This document shows positions 9,980 to 45,941 of a DNA stretch of 64,000 nucleotides, piece by piece. Each line of letters opens with the position of its first letter. Within the stretch, counting starts at the first letter, position 1. The notes below the pieces were generated by a model. That model had not been told where the DNA came from and ran no database searches. It saw only the letters and a program-made list of their open reading frames with translations. Source of the DNA: Ignavibacteriales bacterium (GTDB taxonomy: Bacteria; Bacteroidota; Ignavibacteria; Ignavibacteriales; DAOSCP01); NCBI GenBank assembly GCA_035361425.1, contig DAOSCP010000016.1, positions 4,439 through 68,438 of the forward strand. Reading direction: 5' to 3'. The translations under genes were made by a program, and so were the position numbers.

Positions 9980-11278
9980 ATGGATAACTACACAAAAAAA
10001 CTTTTAAATTTGATTCCTGGCGGGGCACATACTTATTCAAGGGGTTTTGACCAATTCCCTTCAAATTTTCCATCTATTCTTAAAAGAGGAAAAGGTGCCT
10101 ATGTTTACGATATTGATGATAATGAATATCTTGATTATGGCATGGCTCTAAGAGCTAATATTTTAGGTTATGCTCATCCAGAGGTTAATGAAGCTGCAAT
10201 TAAAGCAATAGAAGATGGTAATAATTTAACAAGGCCATCGTATTATGAATTACTAGCTGCTGAAACTTTTGTTGAATTAATTGATTCGGCAGATATGGTT
10301 AAATTTGCTAAAAACGGTTCCAATGCTACTTCTGCTGCAACTAAATTAGCAAGAGCTTATACAGGTAGAAAATATATTGCCAGATGTATCGATCATCCAT
10401 TTTTTAGTTTTGACGATTGGTTTATTGGTTCAACTGTAGTAACAAAGGGAATTCCAGAAGAAATTTCTAATTTAACTTTAACATTTAAATATAATGATAT
10501 AGAAGATTTGGAAAATCTTTTCAAAAAGTATCCTGAGCAGATTGCTTGCGTTATTATGGAACCAGCAATTCTGGAACATCCTAAAGATGGCTATTTGCAT
10601 CAAGTTAAAGAATTATGTCATAAAAATGGAACTGTTTTTATCCTTGATGAAATGATAACTGGCTTTAGATGGCATCTTAAAGGTGCACAAAAATATTATG
10701 ATGTTGAGCCTGATCTTTCAACTTTCGGTAAAGCTATGGCAAATACTTTTTCGTTAGCTGCGGTAAGCGGGAAAAGAGAAATTATGCAACTTGGCTCTAT
10801 TGAATTCCCCGGACAGGAAAGAGTATTTCTGCTTTCAACAACTCACGGCGGTGAGATGGCTCCACTTGCGGCGTTTGTTAAAACTGTTGATCTTATGAAA
10901 AAATATGATGTTATTGATCATATCTGGAATTATGGAAAACAAGTCATTGATATTTTTAATCAAATTGCAAAAAAATTTAATATTAATGAATTTATCTATG
11001 CCGCTGGAGTAGAGTGTTCTCCTTATTATGTTACTAAAAATAAAAATGGAGAAATATCTTTTGAATTTAGAACTTTATTTATACAAGAAATGGTAAAAAA
11101 TAAAGTTCTTATGCCCTGGCTGGCTTTTTGCTATTCCCACGGACAAAAGGAATTTGAGTTGACAAAGTTTGCACTCGAAAAATCTATGGAAGTTTATGCT
11201 AAAGCTTTAGAAGATGGTGTCGATAAATATTTTGAAAGTGATGTTATTATAAAACCTGTTTTTAGAAAATATAATTAA
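9980..11278 (+). CDS. class-III aminotransferase (glutamate-1-semialdehyde aminomutase-like)
   Basis: PGGAHTYSRG..G.GAYVYDIDDNEYLDYGMAL, FILDEMITGFR and STFGKAMAN (PLP lysine context) are typical of HemL-like aminotransferases associated with spsF. Confidence 0.8.
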   Translation: MDNYTKKLLNLIPGGAHTYSRGFDQFPSNFPSILKRGKGAYVYDIDDNEYLDYGMALRANILGYAHPEVNEAAIKAIEDGNNLTRPSYYELLAAETFVELIDSADMVKFAKNGSNATSAATKLARAYTGRKYIARCIDHPFFSFDDWFIGSTVVTKGIPEEISNLTLTFKYNDIEDLENLFKKYPEQIACVIMEPAILEHPKDGYLHQVKELCHKNGTVFILDEMITGFRWHLKGAQKYYDVEPDLSTFGKAMANTFSLAAVSGKREIMQLGSIEFPGQERVFLLSTTHGGEMAPLAAFVKTVDLMKKYDVIDHIWNYGKQVIDIFNQIAKKFNINEFIYAAGVECSPYYVTKNKNGEISFEFRTLFIQEMVKNKVLMPWLAFCYSHGQKEFELTKFALEKSMEVYAKALEDGVDKYFESDVIIKPVFRKYN

Positions 11279-11291
11279 ATGTATTGTTATG

Positions 11292-12020
11292 AACAATAAT
11301 GATTATGTATTATATATTAAAGGAAATAAAAAACATACTGATGAATATTATTGAAAAGCATTAATAAAACTGAACAACAAAAGTTTCTAGAAAATTATCC
11401 TCTTGATGAACTTAAACTTGATGTGAATAAAAAATATACTATGGCAGATATCGCTTGTGGATATGGAACATGCACTTGTAATTTGAACAATATATTTAAA
11501 GTTTCTAATTTTATTTGACTTAAACGATGATGCTAGTGAAAATGCGAAAAAATAATACTGATATAGATGCTCAATATTTTGTTGAAAGTTGTTATGATAT
11601 GAAATCTATTAGTGATAACTCGGGTTACCTGGCTTTTTGTTTGCAAACTTTGGCGTGGATAAATCAACCAGATTTGTGCATTAAAGAAATGGTTCGTATT
11701 ATAAAGCCTGGTGGGCATATTTTTATTACAAGTTTGTTTAATCTTGACTATGACTGTGATCTAATTGTAAAAGTTAGAGATTATACAAAAGATAAAGATT
11801 CTTCCATTAATTAAAATACATAATGCGAGTTTACCATAAAATCGCGGTTCGAAAATTTAAGCATTAAAAATTATAATTTGAAAAAATTTGAAATAGGAAT
11901 CGATTTACCTAAACAACTCGAGGATTAGGGACACACACTGTTAAAACAGAAAAAGGAGAACTTTTACAAATATCCGGTGGTTATTTGATGAATTGGGGAT
12001 TGCTTCATATTATCAAATAA
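11292..12020 (+). pseudogene. class I SAM-dependent methyltransferase, heavily disrupted
   Basis: The SAM-binding motif MADIACGYGTC, then FDLNDDASENAKK and RIIKPGGHIFITS, lie in three different frames. There are several stops (e.g. TGA after ..TDEYY, TGA after ..VSNFI) and a shift in an A-run. The tail ..GTHTVKTEKGELLQISGGYLMNWGLLHIIK ends at 12020. Confidence 0.65.
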
Positions 12021-14668: not shown

Positions 14669-17600
14669 GTGAAAAGTATAAACAATTTATATAAACTTAC
14701 CACAAAATATTTATTATTTTTTCTTTTTTTTATTTTTGCTACTAATTTGTTTGCTACATATGTCAATTCTTTTGTTGTTTCTTTTCCTGCAGAGCAACAA
14801 AATCCAAATAAATCAAAACAACAAAAACCAAGAACAACCAAACAACCTAAAACTAAAACTCAGGAAATTTCAGAAGATTCACTGAAAAAACTTACATATA
14901 TTAAAGATTCTACTGCAAAACTACAATATTATAAATTTTATCGTGATTATTCGCCATTTATTACCTTTAAGGACCAATTTTTTAACATTCCGCTTACTTA
15001 TAAAAAAAATCCTTATAACAGGGAAATTTCATTAGATAGTACCGGTAAATTTGTTATAATAGAAGATAAAATAGGAGGAACTCTTTACCGTCCAGGTTTA
15101 GTGCTACCAATCGAAGATTACATTAATTACAATTTAGCTTTTAACAATCGTTTATTATGGGAACAATTGGTCCGAAGATATGAAGGTAAATTACTGGTTG
15201 AAGATGAATTGAAAAGTTTTATGAGTACTTTTACTAATATTGATATTCCTTTGCCAAATTTAGGGATTTTATCAATTTTTGGAAGACCAGGTATAAAATT
15301 AAGAATTAACGGAGCTGTAGATATACGAGCAGCTTTTAGAAACGAAGAAATGGGAGGTATTACTAATAACATTTATGGAAAATCACGCAATGAACCAGAT
15401 TTTAAACAACAAGTTCAAATTAATGTTGATGGAACTATCGGTGACAAACTAAAAATAAATGCTGATTGGAATACTGAAAGAACATTTGAATATGAAAATA
15501 GATTAAAAATTAAATATACCGGTTATGAAGACGAAATTGTTCAGAATGTAGAAGCTGGTAACGTTTCAATGGGTGGTTCTGGGCTAGTTTCTGGTTCTGA
15601 GGCGTTATTTGGTATCAAGGCTGATATGAAATTTGGTCCTCTTTCTCTTTCCACAATTGCATCTCAAAAGAAAGGAGAAACAAAAGAAAAATCAATTTCT
15701 GGTGGTGGGCAAGCACGAGATATTATTGTAAAACTTAATGAATATTCTACTAATCACTATTTTATTGATACGATATATGCATCTCAATTGCCAGAATTTA
15801 ATATGTTTAATAAATATTTTTCTAAACCAGTTGGTGAAATAGTTGATCCTTATGTTGTTGTTGAAATTGAAGTTTGGAAATCAACTACAAATTTCCTGAA
15901 TCCACAAAGACGAAAAGCTAACGCATATTATTTTCTACCTCCTAAAGTAGGGAATAATTACGATGAATTTAAATCACAAGCTGATCCTACTAGTTCATCT
16001 GATCCGGAAAAAAGGGGTATAACTGGTTATTTTTTAAAACTTGAGCCAGGTAAAGATTATATAATTCACAGAGAAACTGGCTTTATCTCTTTTAAAACAC
16101 AAATACAAGATAATGAAAAAATTGCTGTTGCTTATACAATTCAAGGTAACGATCCTACAGATCCCCGAGATGATATCCAGTATGGCGAATTTGCAAATGA
16201 TAATCCGGATACTACACTTATCTTAAAACTTATTAAACCAGAAAATTTAACTCCAGCTGATCCAATTGGTTGGAAGTTAATGCTTAAAAATATTTATCCT
16301 ACTAAAACATCAAATGTCAAGGAAGCAGGCTTCGAGTTTGATATTAAATATCAACCTTCCGGGAGCGAACCAGTTAATGAATTAACGGGTAAAGATGGGC
16401 AATCTAAAAAATTATTGGATGTTTTTGGATTGGATAAATATAGTGGTGATAATGAGGGGCCTGATGGTAAATTTGACTTTAAAGTTGGAAAAACTATCAT
16501 TACTCAAACAGGAGAAATTATATTCCCTGTATTAGAGCCTTTTGGTAAAAATTTTCCAAAAGAACTGAATGATACATTACGCTTTGATGAACTTTATGAA
16601 TTGCAAGCATATAGAGCTGCTGAAAAAAATGAGAAAAATAGATTTTTCTTTGCTATTAAAGCAACCGGCGATATATCGTCAACTATTCCGATTGGATTTA
16701 ATGTAGTTGAAAATTCCGTTAAAGTGTTTTTCAATGGGCAAGAATTAGTTCCAGGAAAAGATTACGAGGTTGATTATTACGCTGGGCAATTATATATTAA
16801 AAAACCAGAAGCGTTAGTTCCAGGTGCAGATTTAAAAATAAAATACGAAGAAAATGATTTGGCCGCACTTGCTTCAAAATCACTTGTGGGTATGCGTGGA
16901 ATTTTTGATTTTGATGAAAAGACAAAACTTGGTTTTACTGTGATGAATTATTCTCAACAGACTTTGAGTGATAAAGTAAAAATTGGCGATGAACCTATAA
17001 ACAACACAATGTTTGGTATTGATTTCCGTTGGGGCACTGATATTCCAATTTTAACTAAATACTTAAATAAGGTATTTGACGTTCGGGGAATGTCTTCTCT
17101 TAATGTAACTGCTGAATATGCAAGAATAAATCCGGATGGTAATACAATAAAAAGTACAATCGAAGGCGATAGGAAAAAAAGTATTGCCTATATTGATGAT
17201 TTTGAAGGTGGTAAGAGAACAATCAGTATAGGAATTACATCAACCACATGGAAAGATTTAAGTGTGCCTTATTTTGCTGCTCCTAACAAAATGGAATTAA
17301 TGAAATACAAAGCTAAAACTGTTTGGTTTAATTTAATTCCATCTCCTGTTGATGTAAGAGATATATGGCCAGAAAAAGAAACTGCACGTGAGGATAGAAA
17401 TGTTCCCGTTTTAGATTTGTGGTATATTCCTTATATGAAAGGGTTTTACAATTATACACCTTCCCCAGAGCTACCTAAGAAAAACTGGGGAGGTATTATG
17501 AAATATTTACCATTTCCTGCTAAACTCGAGCAAGAAAATGTCGAATATATTGAGTTTTGGTTCAAACCAATGAATTATCACTACAGAGATACAAATTTTG

Positions 17601-20600
17601 CTACTTCAAAAATCTATATAGATATTGGACAAGTCAGTGAAGATGTGATACCAAACGGTAAACTAGATACAGAAGATAAAAAAAGAAACGGAATTTTAGA
17701 CCCCAAATTTGATCTTGGTTTAGATGGACTTACAGATGAAGAGGAAAGAAAATTATACGGCAGCAATGAAAGCGACCCTGCTGGTGATAATTTCTTTTTT
17801 GATGGAAGAAATTATTTACAATATAATGCAACACAGGTAAATGGCAATTTAGCAGAATTATTAAATATTCCTGATACCGAAGATTTAAATGGTGATGGCG
17901 ATGTTAATTTAAGTGAAAATTTCTATAGATATGAAATTCCACTTGATACTAACCGTGCAAATAATCCTTATATTCAGGGCGGAGGGCAAGGTAATAAAAA
18001 TTGGTATTTAATTCGTGTACCAATTCGTGATAACAATAGAAAAGCCTTTGGTAATCCTGATTTACAAAATGTACAATATGTTAGAGTGTTTTTTGAAAAT
18101 GAAACAACCCCTATTGTTTTAAGAATTACAGATTTCAATTTTGTTGGTAGTCAATGGCAAAAAGTTGTCAAAAAAGATTCTACTTATTTTATTGGTGTTA
18201 TAAATCTTTATGATAATCCAGAATATACTATGCCACCTGGATTAAAACAAGAAATTGATTACACATCTACAAGCGAAAGAATTAGAAAGAACGAGCAATC
18301 ATTGCTTTTGAGAATTAAGGAAATATATGCAGGTCAGAAAAAAGAAACGATCAAATACTTATATCAACCGCTTGATATTTTTAATTATAGTGAAATGAAG
18401 TTATTCATTCACGGTGATTTATACAGGAGTACAGATCCAACTAGTTTAACTTATCCAAAAAATGCTTATGTTTATTTAAGATTTGGTACAGATACATTAA
18501 ATTATTATGAATATCGAATGCCAGTTGAAGAAAATTGGCATGATATGCAAATAAAATTAGATAAAATAAGAGCTATCAAGCAAGTTAAAGATTCTTTAAA
18601 TAAAAGTAATTTATATCCGGTTGATGGAAAACCTAATCATTTCTACTCATTTAAAGGAAATCCTAACTTAACAGGAATTAAATTTTTCCTTATAGGTGTA
18701 ATATCTCCAGCTGATAGTGCTGTTCAGGGAGTAAAAATAAATGGTGATATCTGGATAGATGAGTTAAGAGTAATAGATATCGATAATACTCCGGGGTGGT
18801 CTTATAGAACAAGTATTTCATTAAGGCTTTCTGATCTGATGGATGTTTCATTTAACTATAACAGAACAAATCCTAATTTTAGAGGATTAACATCGCGAGT
18901 TATGAATAGTGCATCAAGAAATGATATTAATAGTTGGAGTGTAAATACAAATATCGATATCCTTAAAGTTCTTCCAATAAATTTACCAGAAAGTAATTTA
19001 AAATTAGCATATTCACACTCTGAGTCAAAGGGCAATCCTATGTTTGTTCCTGGAACTGATATTAAAGTTGAAGATGCTATGCAGCAAACACAAAAAAATC
19101 TTATTCAACAGGGTTATTCACCAGAAGAGGCAAGGAAACAAGCAGAAATTATCAAAGAAAATGCTAAGAATATTAGTGTTAGTGATATGTATAATTTGAG
19201 CGGTATAAGATTTAAAATCCCTACAACATTTTGGTTGATAGATAGAACTATAAACGCTACAACTTTTAATTTTAATTATAATAAGAATTTTTCTCGTGGG
19301 CCAGTTGTTGAAAAATCAAATAGTTGGAACTGGGCTGCCTCTATTAATTATAATACAATATTTCCAGCATCAAATTATATTGCATTGAAAAATATATTTT
19401 TAATCGGAGAATTATTCAAAATATTTTCTGATTATCAAAATGTTCGTATTTACTATACACCTGTAAATTTCACTTTTCAAATTACTGCAAACAGAAATTA
19501 TTCATATTCAATAAATAGGAAAGTTAATAATACTAATCCTCAACCAACAGAATCTGCACAATTTGTAACAAGTAGAACCGCAAATTTCGATTGGAAATTA
19601 ACAGAATATGGATTTTTCAATTTAGGTTTTAGATACAATGTCTCCATTAATTCTACATTAAACCATTTAGTTGATCCGAGATTTGAAAGATTATCAGAAA
19701 ATGAGATTTGGAATAGAATTTTCAAAAAAGACTTTTTTGGAACAGATTTAAATTATACTCAATCTACAGATTTAAGGACAAATTTAAGATTGCCACAATT
19801 CTTAAATAAATATCTTACTACATCTTTCGGATACTCTGCAAATTATGCTTGGCAATATCAACCATTAAATAAAGAATTAGGTAGAAGTGCATCGGTATCT
19901 AGTAGAATATCTTCAAATATGTCAATAAGATATAAGCTTTTAATGAGTGATATTTTTGGCGATCCAACAAAAACATCAAATGTAAATCAAAATGATACTT
20001 CAAAATCTGCAATTATAGCTTTAAGAAATTTTTCTACTGGTTTAGGTAGTTTACTATTTAGTTTATTATGTAATTATGATAATATCTCTGCAAATTATTC
20101 TTTATCAAATACATTTACAGCCACTGGTTTACTGGGTAAAGGGCACGGATTTGAAAACTTTTGGGGAATAAAGCAAAATCCTGTTAATGGACCATCAAGA
20201 TCTTTTATGTTAGGTTTTAATTATGATTTAGGGAAAAGAGCACCCAATGGGGCTAATTTAACTGATAATTTTAGTCAAACTAATTCTTTAGATTTTAGAA
20301 CTAATCGAATGCTTTTTGAAAATGTGAACTTAGAATTAAATTGGAGAACAAGCTGGGCATTTAATAAAGTAACAACATTCAAAACAAATTCCAATTCTGA
20401 TGTTGCTATAACAAATATTTCAACTTCTGGAACTTTGCAAAGATCATTTTTAACCATACCACCCGTTGGACCATTTAAAATTTTCAAGAGTGGAATCGAT
20501 TATGTTAGAGAAGAATACAAAGAAAGTAGCGACTCACGCGAAAGTTTACAAAATTTAAGTGAAGCATTTGTAAAAGGTTTTGAAAGTTTTCCAATTTTAT

Positions 20601-21283
20601 CTAAATTTGGTTTAAAAGATATATCTAAATATTTACCACGAGCCAACTGGAGAATTTCGTGGAGTGGTTTAGAAAGGATATTCATTTTTAATTCTTTTGC
20701 ACAAAGAGTATCATTAAATCACGCGTATAATTCAAGTTACAATGAAGCATGGAGAATAACTCCACAAGACTTTAAGGAAATATCATCACAAAAAGTAAAC
20801 TATGGTTTCGCACCTTTGGCTGAGCTCGATATTACTTTCAATAAGCTCTGGAACGGTAACTTAAACGGAAGAGTTAGGTATAACACTAATACAAGCTATG
20901 ATTTGTCTGTAAACTCAAGAAATATAACAGAATCAAATTCACGTGAAGTTGGTGTAACTTTGAGTTACAATAAATCTGGTTTCAATTTACCATTTTTAGG
21001 ATTAAATTTAAGAAATGATCTCGATTTTAGCTTTTCTTTTTCAAGAGCAACAAATGAAGCAGTAGTTTATGATTTTGGACCAGGGAAAAAGAATTCGCCA
21101 GGTGTTCAGCAAGATGGTAGTATAAGAACTACATTAGAACCACGTGCAACTTATAAAGTTAGTACAATGGTTACAGTATCTATCTTTTATTCAAGAAGTA
21201 AAAATGAACCAAAAGGTTCCTCGAGAGTTCAACCTATTACAACAAATACAGCAGGTTTAGATATTCATATAGCAATACAATAA
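14669..21283 (+). CDS. sprA: type IX secretion system translocon SprA
   Basis: 2204-aa ORF with a GTG start and a signal peptide. NVEAGNVSMGG..ALFGIKADMKFGPLSLSTIASQKKGE matches the conserved SprA N-terminal block. The C-terminus is beta-barrel-like. Confidence 0.9.
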   Translation: MKSINNLYKLTTKYLLFFLFFIFATNLFATYVNSFVVSFPAEQQNPNKSKQQKPRTTKQPKTKTQEISEDSLKKLTYIKDSTAKLQYYKFYRDYSPFITFKDQFFNIPLTYKKNPYNREISLDSTGKFVIIEDKIGGTLYRPGLVLPIEDYINYNLAFNNRLLWEQLVRRYEGKLLVEDELKSFMSTFTNIDIPLPNLGILSIFGRPGIKLRINGAVDIRAAFRNEEMGGITNNIYGKSRNEPDFKQQVQINVDGTIGDKLKINADWNTERTFEYENRLKIKYTGYEDEIVQNVEAGNVSMGGSGLVSGSEALFGIKADMKFGPLSLSTIASQKKGETKEKSISGGGQARDIIVKLNEYSTNHYFIDTIYASQLPEFNMFNKYFSKPVGEIVDPYVVVEIEVWKSTTNFLNPQRRKANAYYFLPPKVGNNYDEFKSQADPTSSSDPEKRGITGYFLKLEPGKDYIIHRETGFISFKTQIQDNEKIAVAYTIQGNDPTDPRDDIQYGEFANDNPDTTLILKLIKPENLTPADPIGWKLMLKNIYPTKTSNVKEAGFEFDIKYQPSGSEPVNELTGKDGQSKKLLDVFGLDKYSGDNEGPDGKFDFKVGKTIITQTGEIIFPVLEPFGKNFPKELNDTLRFDELYELQAYRAAEKNEKNRFFFAIKATGDISSTIPIGFNVVENSVKVFFNGQELVPGKDYEVDYYAGQLYIKKPEALVPGADLKIKYEENDLAALASKSLVGMRGIFDFDEKTKLGFTVMNYSQQTLSDKVKIGDEPINNTMFGIDFRWGTDIPILTKYLNKVFDVRGMSSLNVTAEYARINPDGNTIKSTIEGDRKKSIAYIDDFEGGKRTISIGITSTTWKDLSVPYFAAPNKMELMKYKAKTVWFNLIPSPVDVRDIWPEKETAREDRNVPVLDLWYIPYMKGFYNYTPSPELPKKNWGGIMKYLPFPAKLEQENVEYIEFWFKPMNYHYRDTNFATSKIYIDIGQVSEDVIPNGKLDTEDKKRNGILDPKFDLGLDGLTDEEERKLYGSNESDPAGDNFFFDGRNYLQYNATQVNGNLAELLNIPDTEDLNGDGDVNLSENFYRYEIPLDTNRANNPYIQGGGQGNKNWYLIRVPIRDNNRKAFGNPDLQNVQYVRVFFENETTPIVLRITDFNFVGSQWQKVVKKDSTYFIGVINLYDNPEYTMPPGLKQEIDYTSTSERIRKNEQSLLLRIKEIYAGQKKETIKYLYQPLDIFNYSEMKLFIHGDLYRSTDPTSLTYPKNAYVYLRFGTDTLNYYEYRMPVEENWHDMQIKLDKIRAIKQVKDSLNKSNLYPVDGKPNHFYSFKGNPNLTGIKFFLIGVISPADSAVQGVKINGDIWIDELRVIDIDNTPGWSYRTSISLRLSDLMDVSFNYNRTNPNFRGLTSRVMNSASRNDINSWSVNTNIDILKVLPINLPESNLKLAYSHSESKGNPMFVPGTDIKVEDAMQQTQKNLIQQGYSPEEARKQAEIIKENAKNISVSDMYNLSGIRFKIPTTFWLIDRTINATTFNFNYNKNFSRGPVVEKSNSWNWAASINYNTIFPASNYIALKNIFLIGELFKIFSDYQNVRIYYTPVNFTFQITANRNYSYSINRKVNNTNPQPTESAQFVTSRTANFDWKLTEYGFFNLGFRYNVSINSTLNHLVDPRFERLSENEIWNRIFKKDFFGTDLNYTQSTDLRTNLRLPQFLNKYLTTSFGYSANYAWQYQPLNKELGRSASVSSRISSNMSIRYKLLMSDIFGDPTKTSNVNQNDTSKSAIIALRNFSTGLGSLLFSLLCNYDNISANYSLSNTFTATGLLGKGHGFENFWGIKQNPVNGPSRSFMLGFNYDLGKRAPNGANLTDNFSQTNSLDFRTNRMLFENVNLELNWRTSWAFNKVTTFKTNSNSDVAITNISTSGTLQRSFLTIPPVGPFKIFKSGIDYVREEYKESSDSRESLQNLSEAFVKGFESFPILSKFGLKDISKYLPRANWRISWSGLERIFIFNSFAQRVSLNHAYNSSYNEAWRITPQDFKEISSQKVNYGFAPLAELDITFNKLWNGNLNGRVRYNTNTSYDLSVNSRNITESNSREVGVTLSYNKSGFNLPFLGLNLRNDLDFSFSFSRATNEAVVYDFGPGKKNSPGVQQDGSIRTTLEPRATYKVSTMVTVSIFYSRSKNEPKGSSRVQPITTNTAGLDIHIAIQ

Positions 21284-32153: not shown

Positions 32154-32963
32154 TCACATTTTTTCTATTATTTTATTGATTAGTAAACATCCAGGTGCAA
32201 CCATATCGCCGTGGTCAAAACCTTGAAGTTCATATAAATAAGAATTTTCATTCCCATTAAACTTTAACATTTTTATGAAATATTGAGATTCTTCAAACCT
32301 TCCGAAAAGTTCCATTTCTTTATCGCCACAAATTAGATGTATTGGAGGATGTTTTCTATTTACATAATACATAGGGGCCAGAGAGTCAACAATAATCTGT
32401 CCTTCTGGGATGCCCTTAAATTTTCTGATTGTAAAATGTGTAATTGTTTGAGGGCTTAAAGGAATGAGCATCTTTAAATTTTGGGGAGTAAGATTATATC
32501 TGGATAAATAAGAGCTATCCATTCCAATCATTAATGTAATATATCCACCAGCTGAATGGCCTGAAAGTATAATTTTGTTTTTATTTCCGCCATATTTATT
32601 AATATTATCATGAATATATTTAACAGCAGCGGCAGCATCGTCCAATATTTCATTTATATTGGCGTTTGGATATAATCTGTATCCTACAGAGACAATACAA
32701 TTTTTCCCGTTTAGCAATTCTTTTTCGTAATACTTTTCCCCACCAGTTAATCCACCGCCTTGGAACCAAATAATAGTTTGGAAATTTTTAATTAATTTTG
32801 GTAATGCTATATCCAAAACACATTTTTGCTCTTTGTATTGGCTATCGTAAAAACTTTTGTCTTTGTACTTTATGTTGTTTTTAAAGTAATATAAACTATC
32901 TAATTCTTTTGCGATTATGATATTATAGCAAAAAAATATAATTAATAAAAAATTAATTTTCAT
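32154..32963 (-). CDS. alpha/beta-hydrolase esterase (HGGG-box / GxSxG lipase-like)
   Basis: Signal peptide, WFQGGGLTGG oxyanion box, nucleophile elbow SGHSAGG, and C-terminal D/H residues. Confidence 0.75.
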   Translation of the reverse strand: MKINFLLIIFFCYNIIIAKELDSLYYFKNNIKYKDKSFYDSQYKEQKCVLDIALPKLIKNFQTIIWFQGGGLTGGEKYYEKELLNGKNCIVSVGYRLYPNANINEILDDAAAAVKYIHDNINKYGGNKNKIILSGHSAGGYITLMIGMDSSYLSRYNLTPQNLKMLIPLSPQTITHFTIRKFKGIPEGQIIVDSLAPMYYVNRKHPPIHLICGDKEMELFGRFEESQYFIKMLKFNGNENSYLYELQGFDHGDMVAPGCLLINKIIEKM

Positions 32964-41466: not shown

Positions 41467-42186
41467 ATGAAATTAAAAGTAATCGATAGTGGTTTCCAAG
41501 CAGGCAAATATAATATGGATTATGATATGCATTTGGTAGAAAATGTAACACCGGATGAATTTATACTAAGATTTTATCGCTGGCAACCGTATTGCATTTC
41601 TCTTGGAGCTAATCAAAAAGAGGAAGATATCAACACAAATAAATTATATTCTGATGGTTTTGAACTTGTAAGAAGACCAACTGGAGGGCGTGCTGTTTTT
41701 CATGCAGAAGAACTTACATATTCTTTTGTTTGTTATATCAACAATTACTCTCCTATGAGCCTTTACGCAAAAATTAATTCTGCTTTATTAGCTGGCCTTT
41801 CGTTATATGATAACCGATGCACAGGACTTGAGCTTGAACGCATTCAACCTGATTTAAATCAACATTATAAAACTCCGGAAGGAGTTGCTTGTTTTTCTAC
41901 TCCTGCTAAAAGTGAAGTAAAATTTGGTGGTAAAAAAGTTATAGGAAGTGCACAGAAAAAAATCGGTGATAAGATACTCCAGCATGGATCTATACTTACC
42001 GGCGATTTTCATAAAAAAATTGTCGATTATTTGAATTTACCAGAGGTTAAAAAATTGCAAGTAGAGAAAATTATCCAAAGTCAAACTCTTACAATTAAAG
42101 ATATTACAGGCGAAGAAGTAGATTTTGATAAGCTAAAAAAATCTATTATCGAAGGCTTCAAAAAAGAGTTTGCAATAAATGAATAA
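41467..42186 (+). CDS. lipoate-protein ligase / octanoyltransferase family protein (BPL_LplA_LipB domain)
   Basis: RFYRWQPYCISLGANQ..LVRRPTGGRAVFHAEELTYS..KVIGSAQK are the conserved LplA/LipM catalytic-domain motifs. Confidence 0.8.
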   Translation: MKLKVIDSGFQAGKYNMDYDMHLVENVTPDEFILRFYRWQPYCISLGANQKEEDINTNKLYSDGFELVRRPTGGRAVFHAEELTYSFVCYINNYSPMSLYAKINSALLAGLSLYDNRCTGLELERIQPDLNQHYKTPEGVACFSTPAKSEVKFGGKKVIGSAQKKIGDKILQHGSILTGDFHKKIVDYLNLPEVKKLQVEKIIQSQTLTIKDITGEEVDFDKLKKSIIEGFKKEFAINE

Positions 42187-42243: not shown

Positions 42244-42808
42244 GTTCTTTAAAACTGGTTTTAAAGAACGCAAAAGGTATTTGTGTTTTGTTTAAAGAAC
42301 TCAAAGGCCTTTGTGTTCTGTTTAAAGAACACAAAGGTGGTTTATGTTCTGTTTAAAGAACGCAAATTAAATAATATTTATTAAAGCAAAATTTATTAAA
42401 AAAAATTAGTTATTGAGTTCATTCTGGTTTATACATAATTAAGTATTGTTTTTTAAAGAATTGTTTTAAAAACACAAAAATTTATCATAATTTTTCAAAA
42501 AGCCAATTATTTATTGCTCTTTAATCCATAATTTAAAGTATAAATAACTTCTTCTTATTATAATGCATTTCGGATTGTATTATTCGTTTTATAAATTTAT
42601 AGTATAGATATTACTCCTTACTATTTTAGAAAATTCAATAAAATCTATATTAAAGTTAGGATAAGATAATGGGAATTATGTTCTATTTAAAGAACACAAT
42701 AAACTTAGTGTTCTTTAAAAAGCCAAATTAAGAACAAAAAAAATTGCAACATAATAAAAATTTATTATATTGTTTTGTGTTCTTAAAATGGTTATTTAAA
42801 GAACATAA
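42244..42808. repeat. left array of degenerate palindromic repeats (half-sites TGTTCT / AGAACA, spacing 6 or 16 bp)
   Basis: N16 copies start at 42244 and 42778. N6 copies start at 42284, 42314 and 42345. A 61-bp composite module (N6 copy, 12-nt gap, N16 copy) spans 42676-42736. Degenerate traces lie around 42445-42480. Confidence 0.85.
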
Positions 42809-42895
42809 AATATTGTTAGATAAATATGTGATAATATTGAATTATAACAATTAAAATATTATTATAACTTTATTGTAATTATATACGGTGCAATT

Positions 42896-44004
42896 ATGAA
42901 TGTAAAACCTTTTATCCCACATGATTTGAATAAAAGTAGATTGGCAACAATTATTCCCTATTATAATAGAAGCCAATAAATCTTTAGCAAGATACGATGC
43001 CTTTTTGCAAAATCTTATAAATCCTGAGTTATTAATAGCACCTTTATTAACGAGATAAGCAGTATATTCAAGTAGAATAGAAGGAACTCAGGTAACAGTT
43101 GAAGATATTATGCTGCATGAAGGTGGAGCTTATGTAAGGGAGAAACAGCTCGAATACAATGCTGATATTAATGAAACAGTAAATTAAAAAAAAAGCCTTA
43201 TTGTATGGTGCTGAAATGGTAACCATTAGAGAATTATCATTAACACTTATAAAAGAATTACAAAGAATGCTGTTAAGCGATGTAAGAGGAAGTAAAGTTT
43301 TAGTAGGAGAATTCAGAAAAAGGTAGGTGTGGATTGGAAATGCTGGAACACCTATTGAAAAAGCAAGATTTATTCCACCTGATTCAGTTATTGTTCGTGA
43401 ACATCTTGAAAAATTTGAAAAGTTCATAAAAGCAGAATATAAAGATACTCTTGTGCAACTTGCTATTATGCACGCACAATTTGAAATTATACATCCATTT
43501 GAAGACGATAACGGTAGAGTTGGAAGATTGCTAATTCCATTATTTTTGAAGTGGAAAAAAATCTTACATTCGCCAAGCTTTTATCTAAGTGAGTATCTTG
43601 AAGAAAATCGTTCAGAATATTATGATAAGTTGTTAGCTGTTTCTGCAAAAAATGATTGGAATGGCTGGATTAAATATATGCTGTAAGCCATAATTATGCA
43701 AGCTAGCACTAATACTTATAAAGCTAAACAAATTATCGAACTTTATAATAGATCCAAAACGGAATTTTGGGAAATTACAAGATCCCAATATGCTGTTCCT
43801 ATACTTGATGCATTTTTAAAAAGCCTGTAATGAAAGGACCAGAGCTCTTTGAGAGTATAAAAAATTACATCAAAAGGGAATTTTTCATCTATTATTAAAA
43901 ATCTTGTTGATAATAAAATAATTACAATTGTTGAAAAGGGGAAAGGTAGATTTCCTACTATTTACAGATATGATAAACTTTATAATTTAGTTTCATCTCT
44001 TTAA
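42896..44004 (+). pseudogene. Fic/DOC-family protein with a C-terminal winged-helix-like tail, heavily disrupted
   Basis: MNVKPFIPHDL | IKVDWQQLFPIIIEANKSLARYDAFL..LLTR*AVYSSRIEGTQ..NETVN* | ALLYGAEMV..GEFRKR*VWIGNAG..HPFEDDNGRVGRLLIPLFL..WIKYML*AII..LDAF | KKPVMKG.. | NFSSIIKNLVDNKIITIVEKGKGRF. Stops are at 43056-58 (TAA), 43185-87 (TAA), 43324-26 (TAG) and 43684-86 (TAA), with at least 4 frameshifts, one of them in the A9 run 43186-43194. Confidence 0.8.
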
Positions 44005-44009
44005 TAAAG

Positions 44010-44068
44010 CCTTGTGGGAAGTTATTATTAGTTTTACTATAAAATAACTTAGCAAAACTTCCCACAGG
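44010..44068 (+). terminator. long-stem hairpin immediately after the Fic pseudogene (possible terminator)
   Basis: CCTTGTGGGAAGTT..(32-nt loop)..AACTTCCCACAGG: a 13-bp stem with one bulge, followed by gtgcatttt. Confidence 0.45.
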
Positions 44069-44198
44069 TGCATTTTGATATTTTGTAATATGATAATTTT
44101 AAATAATTTTTTAAGTGAAAAATTTAATTATAAATTTCTTATCATTTTATTTTTTTATCATTGAATCTTTGCAAATTATTGTCAAGTAGGGTAAAAAA

Positions 44199-44506
44199 TG
44201 TTCTTTAAAGTTGAGTTTAAAGAATATAACCTAGTTTATGTTCTTTTTAAAGAACACAAATTCAATAATGTTCTTTAAAACACGATTTAAAGAACAAAAT
44301 AGGCTTTTAAGTTAATTAAAAGAACTCAAAATCAAAGTTTAGTTTATGTTCTTTTTAAAGAACACAAAGGCAGCTTATGTTCTCTTTAAAGAACGCAAAT
44401 TATTTAGCGTTCTTTAAATCTCGATTTAAAGAACAAAATAAAGTATTATGTTCTATTTGAGGAACACAAATTACATAGTGTTCCTTGAAAAACGATTATT
44501 AGAACA
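44199..44506. repeat. right array of the same palindromic repeat family
   Basis: 61-bp composite modules span 44236-44296, 44375-44435 and 44446-44506. Extra copies start at 44199 (N16), ~44301 (degenerate) and 44345 (N6). They have the same orientation as the left-array module. Confidence 0.85.
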
Positions 44507-44687: not shown

Positions 44688-45941
44688 ATGAATATATTAG
44701 TTATAGGAGAAGGCGGAAGAGAACACGCTATAATTAAAACAATCAAAAAATCAAAAAAATGTGAAAAATTATTTGCTCTACCGGGAAATGCTGGAATATC
44801 ATCAGATGCTGAGTGTGTAAATATTAACACTAATGATTTTGAAAAAATATTAGAATTTGTCAAAAACAATAATATTAACTTAGTAGTTGTTGGACCAGAA
44901 GTTCCGCTCGCAAATGGTATAACAGATTATTTAAATAATCATAATGTTAGAGTATTTGGTCCTGTACAAAAAGCAGCAGAAATAGAAGCAAGCAAAGTAT
45001 TTGCTAAAAATTTGATGAAAAAGTATAACATTCCAACAGCTACATTTGAAGTATTTGAAAATTATGATGAGGCAATAAATTATATCAAAAATAATAATAA
45101 ATATCCTGTTGTAATAAAAGCGGATGGTCTTGCAGCTGGAAAAGGAGTTTTAATTCCTAAAAATTACGATGAGGCAGAAAGTGCACTAAAAGAAATTATG
45201 CTAGATAAAACTTTTGGAGATGCAGGAAATAGAGTTGTGATTGAAAAATTTCTCAAAGGGATTGAAATGTCTATACTTGCCTTTACTGATGGTAAAACGG
45301 TTGTTCCTATGGTTTCCGCTAAAGATTATAAAAAGGTTGGCGAAGGCGATACCGGATTAAATACTGGCGGTATGGGCGCAATTTCTCCTAATCCTATTTA
45401 TACCGATGAAGTGGCAGATTATTGTTATAAAAATATATTTCTCCCTACAATTGAGGCGCTTACAAAAGAAAATAGAAAATTCAAAGGTGTTTTATATTTT
45501 GGAATGATTAAAACAGATGACGGTATTTATGTGATAGAATATAATTGTAGATTTGGTGATCCAGAAACGCAGGTAATCTTACCAAGATTAAAAACAGATA
45601 TAGTTGATATCTTTGAAGCCGTTATTGATGAAAGATTAAATGAAATAAAAATCGAGTGGTTGGATGATGTAGCGATGACAATTGTTTTAGCATCGGGTGG
45701 ATATCCTAAAGAGTATAAAAAAGGTTATGAAATTAAAAATCTTGATAAAATTGAAAAAGATATTATTGTATTTCACGCAGGGACGAAAATTAAAGATGGG
45801 AAAATTGTTACCAATGGTGGTAGAGTTCTTAATGTTACATACTTAGGAAAATCATTTGATGAAGTAAAGGGGAAAATACTAAAAGCTTGTCAAGTAATTG
45901 ATTTTGAAAATAAATATTTTAGAAAAGATATTGGAATATAA
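44688..45941 (+). CDS. purD: phosphoribosylamine-glycine ligase
   Basis: [14 protein letters not shown].., an ATP-grasp core, and [12 protein letters not shown]. Confidence 0.97.

Follow-up and report, generated by a model that had tools for sequence, protein, structure and literature searches.

Repeat arrays on both sides of a Fic pseudogene

We analysed a stretch of 64,000 nucleotides (the window) from contig DAOSCP010000016.1, whose named homologs place the organism in Ignavibacteria/Ignavibacteriales. Between an lplA-type lipoate ligase gene (41467-42186) and purD (44688-45941), the window carries a Fic pseudogene flanked by repeat arrays, in which an 11-bp word occurs about two dozen times, on both sides of the Fic gene and in steps of 30 or 40 bp. 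The surrounding genes are housekeeping genes (ispG, DJ-1, lplA, purD and prfB). An earlier note on this DNA had described the repeats as palindromes, TGTTCT-N6-AGAACA and TGTTCT-N16-AGAACA, and we retain N6 and N16 as names of the two kinds of unit. The features of the locus are as follows.

42244-42366, + strand: array A, which starts 58 bp past the lplA stop codon and consists of one N16 unit (42244-42269) followed by three N6 units
42260, 42291, 42321 and 42352, + strand: forward half-sites of array A, at spacings of 31, 30 and 31 bp
42307-42338, + strand: array A unit with arms of 12-13 bp, terminator-like and matching the terminator pattern
42438-42545, + strand: degenerate older units, with remnants at 42441-42472 and 42492-42544 and weak profile hits at 42438-42479 and 42512-42541
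42676-42736, + strand: module 1, in which a 12-nt linker joins an N6 unit (42679-42696) to an N16 unit (42709-42736)
42778-42805, + strand: the promoter-nearest N16 palindrome, TGTTCTTAAAATGGTTATTTAAAGAACA, ending 92 bp upstream of the Fic start codon
42897-44005, + strand: Fic pseudogene
44010-44068, + strand: hairpin CCTTGTGGGAAGTT...AACTTCCCACAGG, directly past the Fic stop codon
44199-44506, + strand: array B, which lies 3' of Fic and ends 182 bp short of the purD start codon
44199-44226, 44236-44296 and 44310-44330, + strand: first part of array B, namely an N16 unit, module 2 and a degenerate N6 unit
44343-44368, 44375-44435 and 44446-44506, + strand: second part of array B, namely an N6 unit, module 3 and module 4
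44200-44331, + strand: 133-bp block of four units (N16-N6-N16-N6), with an 81% identical copy at the hutI/coaE locus described below

The exact pattern TGTTCT-N(6-16)-AGAACA matched the window seven times, always within 42314-44364, while 0.05 matches were expected from shuffles. The 10-mer core TTTAAAGAAC/GTTCTTTAAA was found in 16 exact copies on the two strands of the window (0.84 expected), all of them at 42244-44434; when one mismatch was allowed, the 2.3-kb region held 22 of the 38 matches in the window. These counts, with which a profile hidden Markov model (HMM) of the module agrees, bear out the claim that no comparable cluster exists elsewhere in the window. Allowing degenerate copies, nine N6 units (starts at 42284, 42314, 42345, 42679, 44239, 44310, 44347, 44378 and 44449) and seven N16 units (starts at 42244, 42709, 42778, 44199, 44269, 44409 and 44479) were counted, giving the minimum of 16 palindromes that had been reported. 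Likewise, the four 61-bp modules lie where they had been placed, on the + strand throughout; their identity to the first is 74-78%. Tandem Repeats Finder returned a 31-bp array of 3.5 copies at 42260-42366 and a 71-bp array of 3.7 copies at 44236-44497, and tandem periods of 31, 70/71 and 140 bp were observed across the arrays of the window and its relatives.

To describe the anatomy of the repeat, copies were anchored on the forward half-site and 24 modules from four sequences were aligned. The true repeat unit is an 11-bp half-site, TGTTCTTTAAA, which reads TTTAAAGAACA on the other strand. N16 is a full palindrome that uses this half-site twice (11-6-11), while N6 holds a single full half-site, which is preceded by a partial short left arm in the window lineage only; the apparent N6 'spacer' is the TTTAAA portion of that half-site. 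The proposed contrast between N6 and N16 spacings one helical turn apart is thus an artefact of how the half-site had been defined. Nearly all of the roughly 30 intervals between forward half-sites measure 30/31 or 40 bp, the exceptions being one interval of 38 bp and three of 69-70 bp where a site is skipped, and the alternation of N16 and N6 units at these two distances yields a 70-71-bp module with the consensus TTTAAAGAACAnAAAtt...TAgtGTnCTTTAAA-n5/6-aTTTAAAGAACAnAA. Information content in the alignment is high at the half-sites and close to none in the loops and at most linker positions, the 70-bp units being 65-85% identical to one another. Every unit of every array has the same orientation (direct, not alternating), and in the window degenerate older units are interspersed among fresh ones.

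Conservation, turnover and a second locus

The purD protein was found unchanged on at least 21 anaerobic-digester metagenome contigs, all of which carry the same locus, and ten of these assemblies differ from the window at only 5 positions over the 2.5-kb spacer, with no copy-number polymorphism of the repeats among them. In a sister lineage (contigs L040 and L041) an intact Fic gene occupies the same place, in the order ispG, DJ-1, lplA, about 1 kb of arrays, Fic, hairpin and ATP-binding cassette (ABC) transporter. Its product is 64-65% identical to the reconstructed window protein, and the housekeeping proteins IspG and LplA are 76-78% identical to those of the window. The arrays of both contigs use the same half-site in the same 30/40 rhythm. 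There, the N6 unit lacks the left arm and is a lone half-site, and the left arm of N16 reads GTACTTTAAA, which creates an A.A mismatch with no compensating change in any copy. Directly past the Fic stop codon, L040 and L041 have a hairpin that is N16-like and carries a GC clamp and a T-run. In the window, L040 and L041 alike, about 90 bp separate the end of the last palindrome from the Fic ATG, and this palindrome is the only one common to that stretch; sequence comparison revealed no other operator shared by the window and these relatives in the last 130 bp before Fic.

No repeat copies were present in a relative at a similar distance in which lplA is followed by valS and Fic is missing (L056), nor in more distant relatives. 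Among the compared lplA loci Fic and the arrays are present or absent together. The spacer itself changes quickly. Identity between L040 and L041 is 86-89% through the genes on either side and 78-100% across four intergenic regions elsewhere, while their lplA-Fic spacers cannot be aligned except for repeat-to-repeat matches (z of about 0 for the non-repeat parts); across lineages, too, no similarity was detected between the non-repeat parts of this spacer. Since the spacer is unalignable and old units stand among fresh ones, we conclude that it has been remodelled fast while half-site and spacing were kept. The 3' end of lplA (42186/42187) is a synteny breakpoint in four lineages. The next genes are Fic and purD in the window, Fic and the ABC transporter gene in L040 and L041, valS (convergent) in L056 and an extracytoplasmic function (ECF) sigma factor gene in L057. 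In the lplA-valS spacer of L056 (1120-1185), GATAA follows each of two unrelated, GC-rich palindromes, ATCCCACTTGG..CCAAGTGGGAT and CCCGCGCGCATGCGCGGG, which may belong to another small repeat family.

The Fic gene of the window is, as the earlier note had it, a genuine pseudogene, interrupted over 42897-44005 by three in-frame stops and four or more frameshifts. In a 99% identical strain (L039, 10001-10795) the first 264 Fic codons are open. The TAA at 43684-43686, which is common to the window and L039, falls at codon 265 and removes the C-terminal winged-helix domain, while a deletion of 5 bp, an insertion of 1 bp and two additional stop codons within the 264-codon stretch are specific to the window. 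Because L039 keeps these codons open yet shares the stop at 43684, the decay of Fic appears to be both recent and the result of several hits, and because Fic has just decayed with loss of its winged helix, the arrays would be freshly orphaned. The window and L039 differ at 8 positions within the promoter-proximal 175 bp (42676-42850) versus 2 in the preceding 525 bp, and two L039 differences strike the conserved C of GTTC in N16 left arms; gene conversion, relaxed constraint and selection are possible causes of this cluster.

A second locus was found by searching metagenomes. One hit (L019), from the same sample as a window-type contig, carries an N16-N6-N16-N6 block between convergent hutI and coaE genes, and the same hutI-coaE locus is present in assembly ERZ795051 (L063), where its coverage is 11.3x and that of the window-type contig is 11.7x. 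The GC content of the two contigs of this assembly is the same and their homolog-identity ladders run parallel; given the equal coverage, equal GC content and parallel identities, we conclude that the hutI-coaE locus belongs to the same organism. The 133-bp block and window positions 44200-44331 share 81% identity, the similarity stops at the block ends and motif hairpins lie at both ends. Between the two copies, mismatches affect 11 of 77 half-site positions versus 20 of 51 linker positions (p = 0.0016). The orthologous hutI-coaE spacer of the sister lineage is 25 bp long and has no repeat. A search with the module profile HMM over about 190 kb (the 64-kb window plus about 125 kb of further DNA, from its own lineage and from Ignavibacteria relatives; mostly window and sister lineages, including 21 kb around the hutI-coaE locus) found only the loci described here, and the metagenome scan gave this one further repeat locus only. 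With one extra locus and a block copied there, the repeat family is of low copy number and has moved at least once. The earlier note had offered uniform spread of the motif through intergenic regions as the mark of a generic element with no link to this locus; the motif does occur outside the Fic locus, in the hutI-coaE block, but it is not spread uniformly, a single extra locus having been found.

We also compared the units as double-stranded sequence and as hairpins. The arms of N16 can pair in 79% of cells, a value that 436 of 500 shuffles of the partners equal, the covariation of N16 is below the shuffle mean and an uncompensated A.A mismatch is present in 11 of 24 N16 copies. The N6 units of the window lineage show symmetric compensatory variation at 5 pairs, with 8 of 500 shuffles reaching the covariation score. 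Predicted folding was strong on both strands (z = -10 for + and -11 for -), as it must be for any palindromic array. Because the half-sites are kept and the linkers and loops are not, N16 does not covary and lone half-sites occur in the sister lineage, recognition of double-stranded DNA by a protein is likelier than selection for a hairpin. We therefore rejected a conserved hairpin, whether of RNA or of single-stranded DNA, its modest support from N6 being confined to the window lineage.

Fic proteins as putative readers of the half-site

The Fic protein encoded at this locus is of the SoFic-type class II, with the Pfam domains Fic_N and Fic and the inhibitory motif SSRIEG. SoFic was the best Protein Data Bank (PDB) match to the intact ortholog, the alignment spanning the Fic domain and the C-terminal winged helix up to residue 359 of 370. 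Two proteins of this kind bind their own promoters. CccR, a SoFic-like Fic effector of Yersinia pseudotuberculosis, binds AGATAATCAT-N26-ATGATAATCT in its own promoter and represses itself, contacting this 10-bp inverted repeat as a dimer by means of the helix-turn-helix (HTH) at its C terminus (PMC9755527). Dimeric SoFic of Shewanella oneidensis binds the promoter of its own gene, best within the last 100 bp ahead of the ATG, the DNA motif having been left undefined by the authors (bioRxiv 10.64898/2026.07.09.737422). In addition, (de)AMPylation by the related CbFic2 is controlled by DNA binding (PMC10628234).

We inspected the 300-bp SoFic promoter given in Table S2 of the preprint and found five exact copies and one near copy of ATGTCGAT/ATCGACAT, at -148 (one mismatch), -137, -107, -68, -57 and -28. 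The copies follow the order palindrome/single/palindrome/single, with same-strand sites 41, 39 and 40 bp apart, and the best-bound promoter fragment contains most of them. Four copies of a different pair, TGTATAGA/TCTATACA, lie farther upstream. A term search of the main text of bioRxiv 10.64898/2026.07.09.737422 returned no mention of a palindrome or inverted repeat, so its authors apparently describe neither motif.

Ten solitary SoFic-type genes were then examined in an exploratory survey, namely SoFic, one on a viral contig and eight of nine plasmid loci; the ninth, from Thermus (L071), has an upstream spacer of 52 bp and was left out. Seven of the ten genes have, in the 200 bp upstream, 3-5 copies of a 9-mer specific to the locus, a count that was reached by 0, 0, 0, 4, 9, 10 and 16 of 100 shuffles, respectively, and that neither 10 coding nor 13 non-coding control windows attained. 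Neighbouring 9-mers were spaced at 24-31 or 39-44 bp in 16 of 21 cases. Taken with the arrays described here, these sequence comparisons suggest a family rule, in which a solitary SoFic-type gene has several half-sites of about 9-11 bp that are specific to its lineage and occur as palindromes and as singles at distances of about 30 or 40 bp. Five of the plasmid genes (L070, L072, L075, L077 and L078) have unusually long upstream intergenic regions of 420-660 bp, and several of these plasmid Fic loci adjoin toxin-antitoxin genes (PIN, HicB and HigB). A hexanucleotide tandem repeat, seven copies of GTGCTG, lies just 3' of the Fic homolog of the viral contig (L068, 4156-4200).

The reading that we tentatively favour is that the arrays are an expanded, modular multi-operator for the adjacent SoFic-type Fic, the most likely reader of the half-site being, by analogy, the C-terminal winged helix of Fic acting as a dimer. 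It draws on the observed anatomy and conservation of the arrays, on the precedent within the family and on the analogous promoter architecture, from which we infer Fic as the binder as well as the regulatory consequence. As at the operators of CccR and SoFic, a class II Fic with a C-terminal winged helix lies beside the arrays, and inverted half-sites of about 10 bp occupy the presumed Fic promoter region in the window, L040 and L041. The earlier note had likened the arrays to operators or iterons bound by a dimeric HTH protein, conceivably Fic; the two precedents, the winged helix and the occurrence of arrays before an intact Fic lend weight to this suggestion, in which the binding step is what we infer. 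Fic dimers would dock on the promoter-proximal N16 palindrome and on the phased palindrome/single-site modules upstream, and this docking, by analogy with CccR and SoFic, would repress and buffer the transcription of a potentially toxic AMPylase. The operator, whose tandem structure is evident, would have been enlarged to 0.7-1 kb by tandem duplication of the 70-bp module, and in the window lineage copying would have carried the array into the downstream spacer and, on one occasion, to an unrelated locus, where the copies are seen. Finally, Fic decayed through the stop at codon 265 and the further hits found in the window, presumably leaving the arrays orphaned.

The likeness to the two precedents is one of design rather than of scale. 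With CccR the locus shares a class II Fic with a C-terminal HTH, presumed dimerization and inverted half-sites of about 10 bp in the Fic gene's own promoter region, autorepression being established for CccR. The CccR operator is a single palindrome with a 26-bp spacer, while here more than 20 half-sites are organized in 70-bp modules with a 6-bp palindrome spacer, and the arrays, as putative binding sites, lie on both sides of the gene with a further copy at another locus. With SoFic the locus shares the palindrome/single pattern and a distance of about 40 bp between same-strand sites, a layout that matches the N16/N6 module; the SoFic promoter has 5-6 sites in 150 bp with an 80-bp period, as opposed to arrays of 0.7-1 kb with a 70-bp period (30 + 40) here, and the role of the SoFic motif is likewise putative, the authors having defined none. 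The sequence ATTGTTA-N26-TAACAAT, with the same 26-bp spacer as the CccR operator, is found at 42812-42851, just 5' of the Fic start, in the window lineage only; it could be due to chance in AT-rich DNA.

Several observations weigh against an operator for Fic. The number of half-sites, above 20, is far greater than in any described Fic operator, and the palindrome spacer is 6 bp versus 26 bp in CccR and 1-3 bp in SoFic. The sites are not confined to promoters of Fic or of a Fic regulon, since array B lies 3' of Fic and a block is found at hutI-coaE; the downstream array, the hutI-coaE copy and the fast turnover fit this explanation less well, and a block between convergent hutI and coaE, with neither Fic nor a promoter and with an empty site in the relative, looks like mobility. 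Furthermore, the 9-mer survey was post hoc, used a small sample and is powerless in Ignavibacteria DNA of 17% GC. The sequence-closest Fic homologs, about 50% identical, are located inside type I restriction-modification operons and have no spacer or array. We therefore rejected the arrays as a general trait of these homologs; because the restriction-modification homologs lack arrays, the arrays track solitary Fic genes and not the protein as such.

Competing explanations and significance

The alternative that best withstands the evidence is a lineage-specific selfish or structural palindromic repeat, its hairpin-forming units amplified locally, of the kind of repetitive extragenic palindromes and bacterial interspersed mosaic elements (REP/BIME) or of miniature inverted-repeat transposable elements (MITE), mobilized now and then by an enzyme encoded elsewhere and acting in trans (e.g. 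a Y1 transposase, REP-associated tyrosine transposase or RAYT), with no functional tie to Fic, whose spacer would be a permissive nest. We consider it unlikely, though worth serious attention. The 133-bp block with hairpin ends at a second, unrelated locus whose orthologous site is empty in a relative is what such an element would leave behind, and the rapid turnover of the lplA-Fic spacer between L040 and L041, the decayed older copies among fresh ones, the compensatory variation of N6 in the window lineage (5 pairs; 8 of 500 shuffles) and the motif-based terminator hairpin after Fic in the relatives also fit. The arrays resemble REP/BIME and MITE sequences in being short imperfect palindromes in modular intergenic mosaics, often at the 3' ends of genes, with a composite block at more than one locus. 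However, REP/BIME elements occur in hundreds of alternating copies and are linked to RAYT, while here the copy number in the DNA searched is very low, with two known loci and about 40 other intergenic regions of the window devoid of copies, the units are direct, and neither a transposase nor a RAYT was seen in the annotated parts of the window or, for RAYT, in the fetched loci. The annotation (Pfam) covered 20 open reading frames (ORFs) in 1-32 kb plus those of about 33-56 kb, with the ORFs at 14669-21283, at 32154-32963 and beyond about 56.4 kb lying outside it, and contained nothing like a transposase, integrase or cas gene. For a MITE, terminal inverted repeats and a target-site duplication are not established in the 133-bp block, whose ends are the motif hairpins. 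Exact-pattern scans gave 7 singletons and no cluster in the GTDB representative genomes, and in viral contigs no match for one pattern and 14 singletons without a cluster for another; blastn searches with array B returned nothing from plasmids and, from phages, only chance matches of about 39-58 bp (the sum of at most two pieces) in T5-like tail genes. Lastly, a hairpin-based mechanism predicts neither the fixed mismatch and missing covariation of N16 nor the lone half-sites kept in the relatives.

Quite improbable, in our estimate, is a binding array for another protein encoded elsewhere, with iteron- or centromere-like, nucleoid-protein or recombinase sites, perhaps as the remnant of an element that brought Fic. 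Direct repeats at multiples of about 10 bp combined with inverted copies recall Rep iterons with their inverted-repeat operator, and the presentation of a half-site as phased direct and inverted repeats 5' of a gene for a dimerizing winged-helix protein is shared with the iterons of RepA, pi and RepE. The core sites of tyrosine recombinases have a geometry resembling 11-6-11, synteny breaks at the 3' end of lplA in four lineages, and Fic and the arrays co-occur or are absent together. Against these points, neither the annotated parts of the window nor the loci of the relatives contain a rep, par, integrase or recombinase gene, no DnaA-box cluster is found at the arrays, and there is no plasmid or phage similarity. 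Unlike in plasmid iterons, the adjacent gene encodes an AMPylase rather than a replication initiator, and the central 6 bp of N16 differ among copies, which makes them unsuited to strand exchange of the Xer or Cre type. A plasmid iteron or centromere array is a poor match, given the housekeeping neighbours, the lack of plasmid similarity and the lack of a DnaA-box cluster, and we rejected a replication origin, there being no DnaA-box cluster and no skew switch at the arrays. The half-site and its spacing do not appear to fit parS, LexA, CRP/Rex boxes or hix-, res- or dif-like sites; one N16 copy is like the left half of hixL, but the centre-proximal bases differ among copies.

A slim chance is given to the arrays as something beyond an operator, namely an expandable DNA scaffold that would titrate Fic and set its oligomeric and catalytic state, by analogy with CbFic2 (PMC10628234). 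If so, the number of half-sites at the gene and the decoy copies elsewhere would tune the level of active toxin.

A neutral, functionless minisatellite, in which the 70-bp unit was duplicated by slippage or unequal crossing-over, would account for the tandem organization (periods of 31, 70/71 and 140 bp) and for the rapid turnover between relatives. We hold it to be very improbable, as the half-sites are essentially invariant within the arrays while the linkers diverge, indels have not disturbed the 30/40-bp spacing in this AT-rich DNA, the motif has been retained in lineages with no more than 76-78% identity between housekeeping proteins and the ten near-identical assemblies do not differ in copy number.

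An RNA element, with tandem hairpins serving as terminators, insulators or stabilizers for lplA, Fic and coaE, or as a ToxI-like antidote of a type III toxin-antitoxin system, is more doubtful still, even though the arrays are in sense orientation 3' of a gene and lie 5' of Fic and co-oriented with it, folding is predicted to be strong (z = -10 for + and -11 for -), one unit fits the terminator pattern and the Fic terminators of the relatives are built on the motif: N16 shows no covariation, a T-run is missing from most units, no hairpin can form from the relatives' N6 units, Rfam gives no match and copies exist away from Fic. That transcribed repeats are an antidote to a Fic toxin is barely credible, given that a class II Fic has its own inhibitory helix (SSRIEG) and is not a ToxN-like RNase; ToxIN and AbiQ/antiQ do share tandem direct repeats placed immediately 5' of a toxin gene and co-oriented with it, while ToxI-type units are near-identical, 34-40 nt long and processed by the toxin endoRNase, and conserved RNA structure, as in type III repeats, is unsupported here. 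With modules of 70 bp that are 65-85% identical, and Fic as the gene, the locus is a poor match to a type III system.

Other identities were set aside as well. The loops inside the supposed repeat vary, the supposed spacers hold a conserved half-site and no cas-like ORF is found among the annotated genes, in agreement with the earlier view that this is not an array of clustered regularly interspaced short palindromic repeats (CRISPR). That the modules are not transposon ends holds as well, considering their shared orientation, the lack of a transposase among the annotated ORFs and the lack of a match to known mobile-element ends, for which plasmids gave nothing and phages chance matches only. 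Integron attC sites were rejected, the half-sites AAAGAAC/GTTCTTT differing from the consensus RYYYAAC/GTTRRRY and no integrase being present among the annotated genes. Rfam and tRNA scans of the window were empty, and a sigma-70 promoter scan was uninformative in DNA of 18% GC. Elsewhere in the window, four DnaA boxes, each one mismatch away from the consensus, occur on the - strand within 450 bp (11218-11662), mostly in a 770-bp intergenic region between an aminotransferase gene and a VIT1-family gene; the ORF at 14669-21283 is 2204 aa long, and several type IX secretion system (T9SS; Por_Secre_tail) proteins are encoded.

The dual role of winged-helix Fic enzymes as toxins and as transcription factors has been shown only recently, for CccR (2022) and SoFic (2026 preprint). 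If the arrays are a multi-operator for Fic, those of Ignavibacteria would be an extreme case of a family rule, with more than 20 sites in a 70-bp module; if the mobile-repeat explanation is right, they are one more lineage-specific repeat family. From the sister lineage, where Fic is intact, to the window, where it has just been lost, the locus offers a natural series, and it supplies a defined, synthesizable candidate for the DNA target in a family in which DNA recognition has only begun to be understood.

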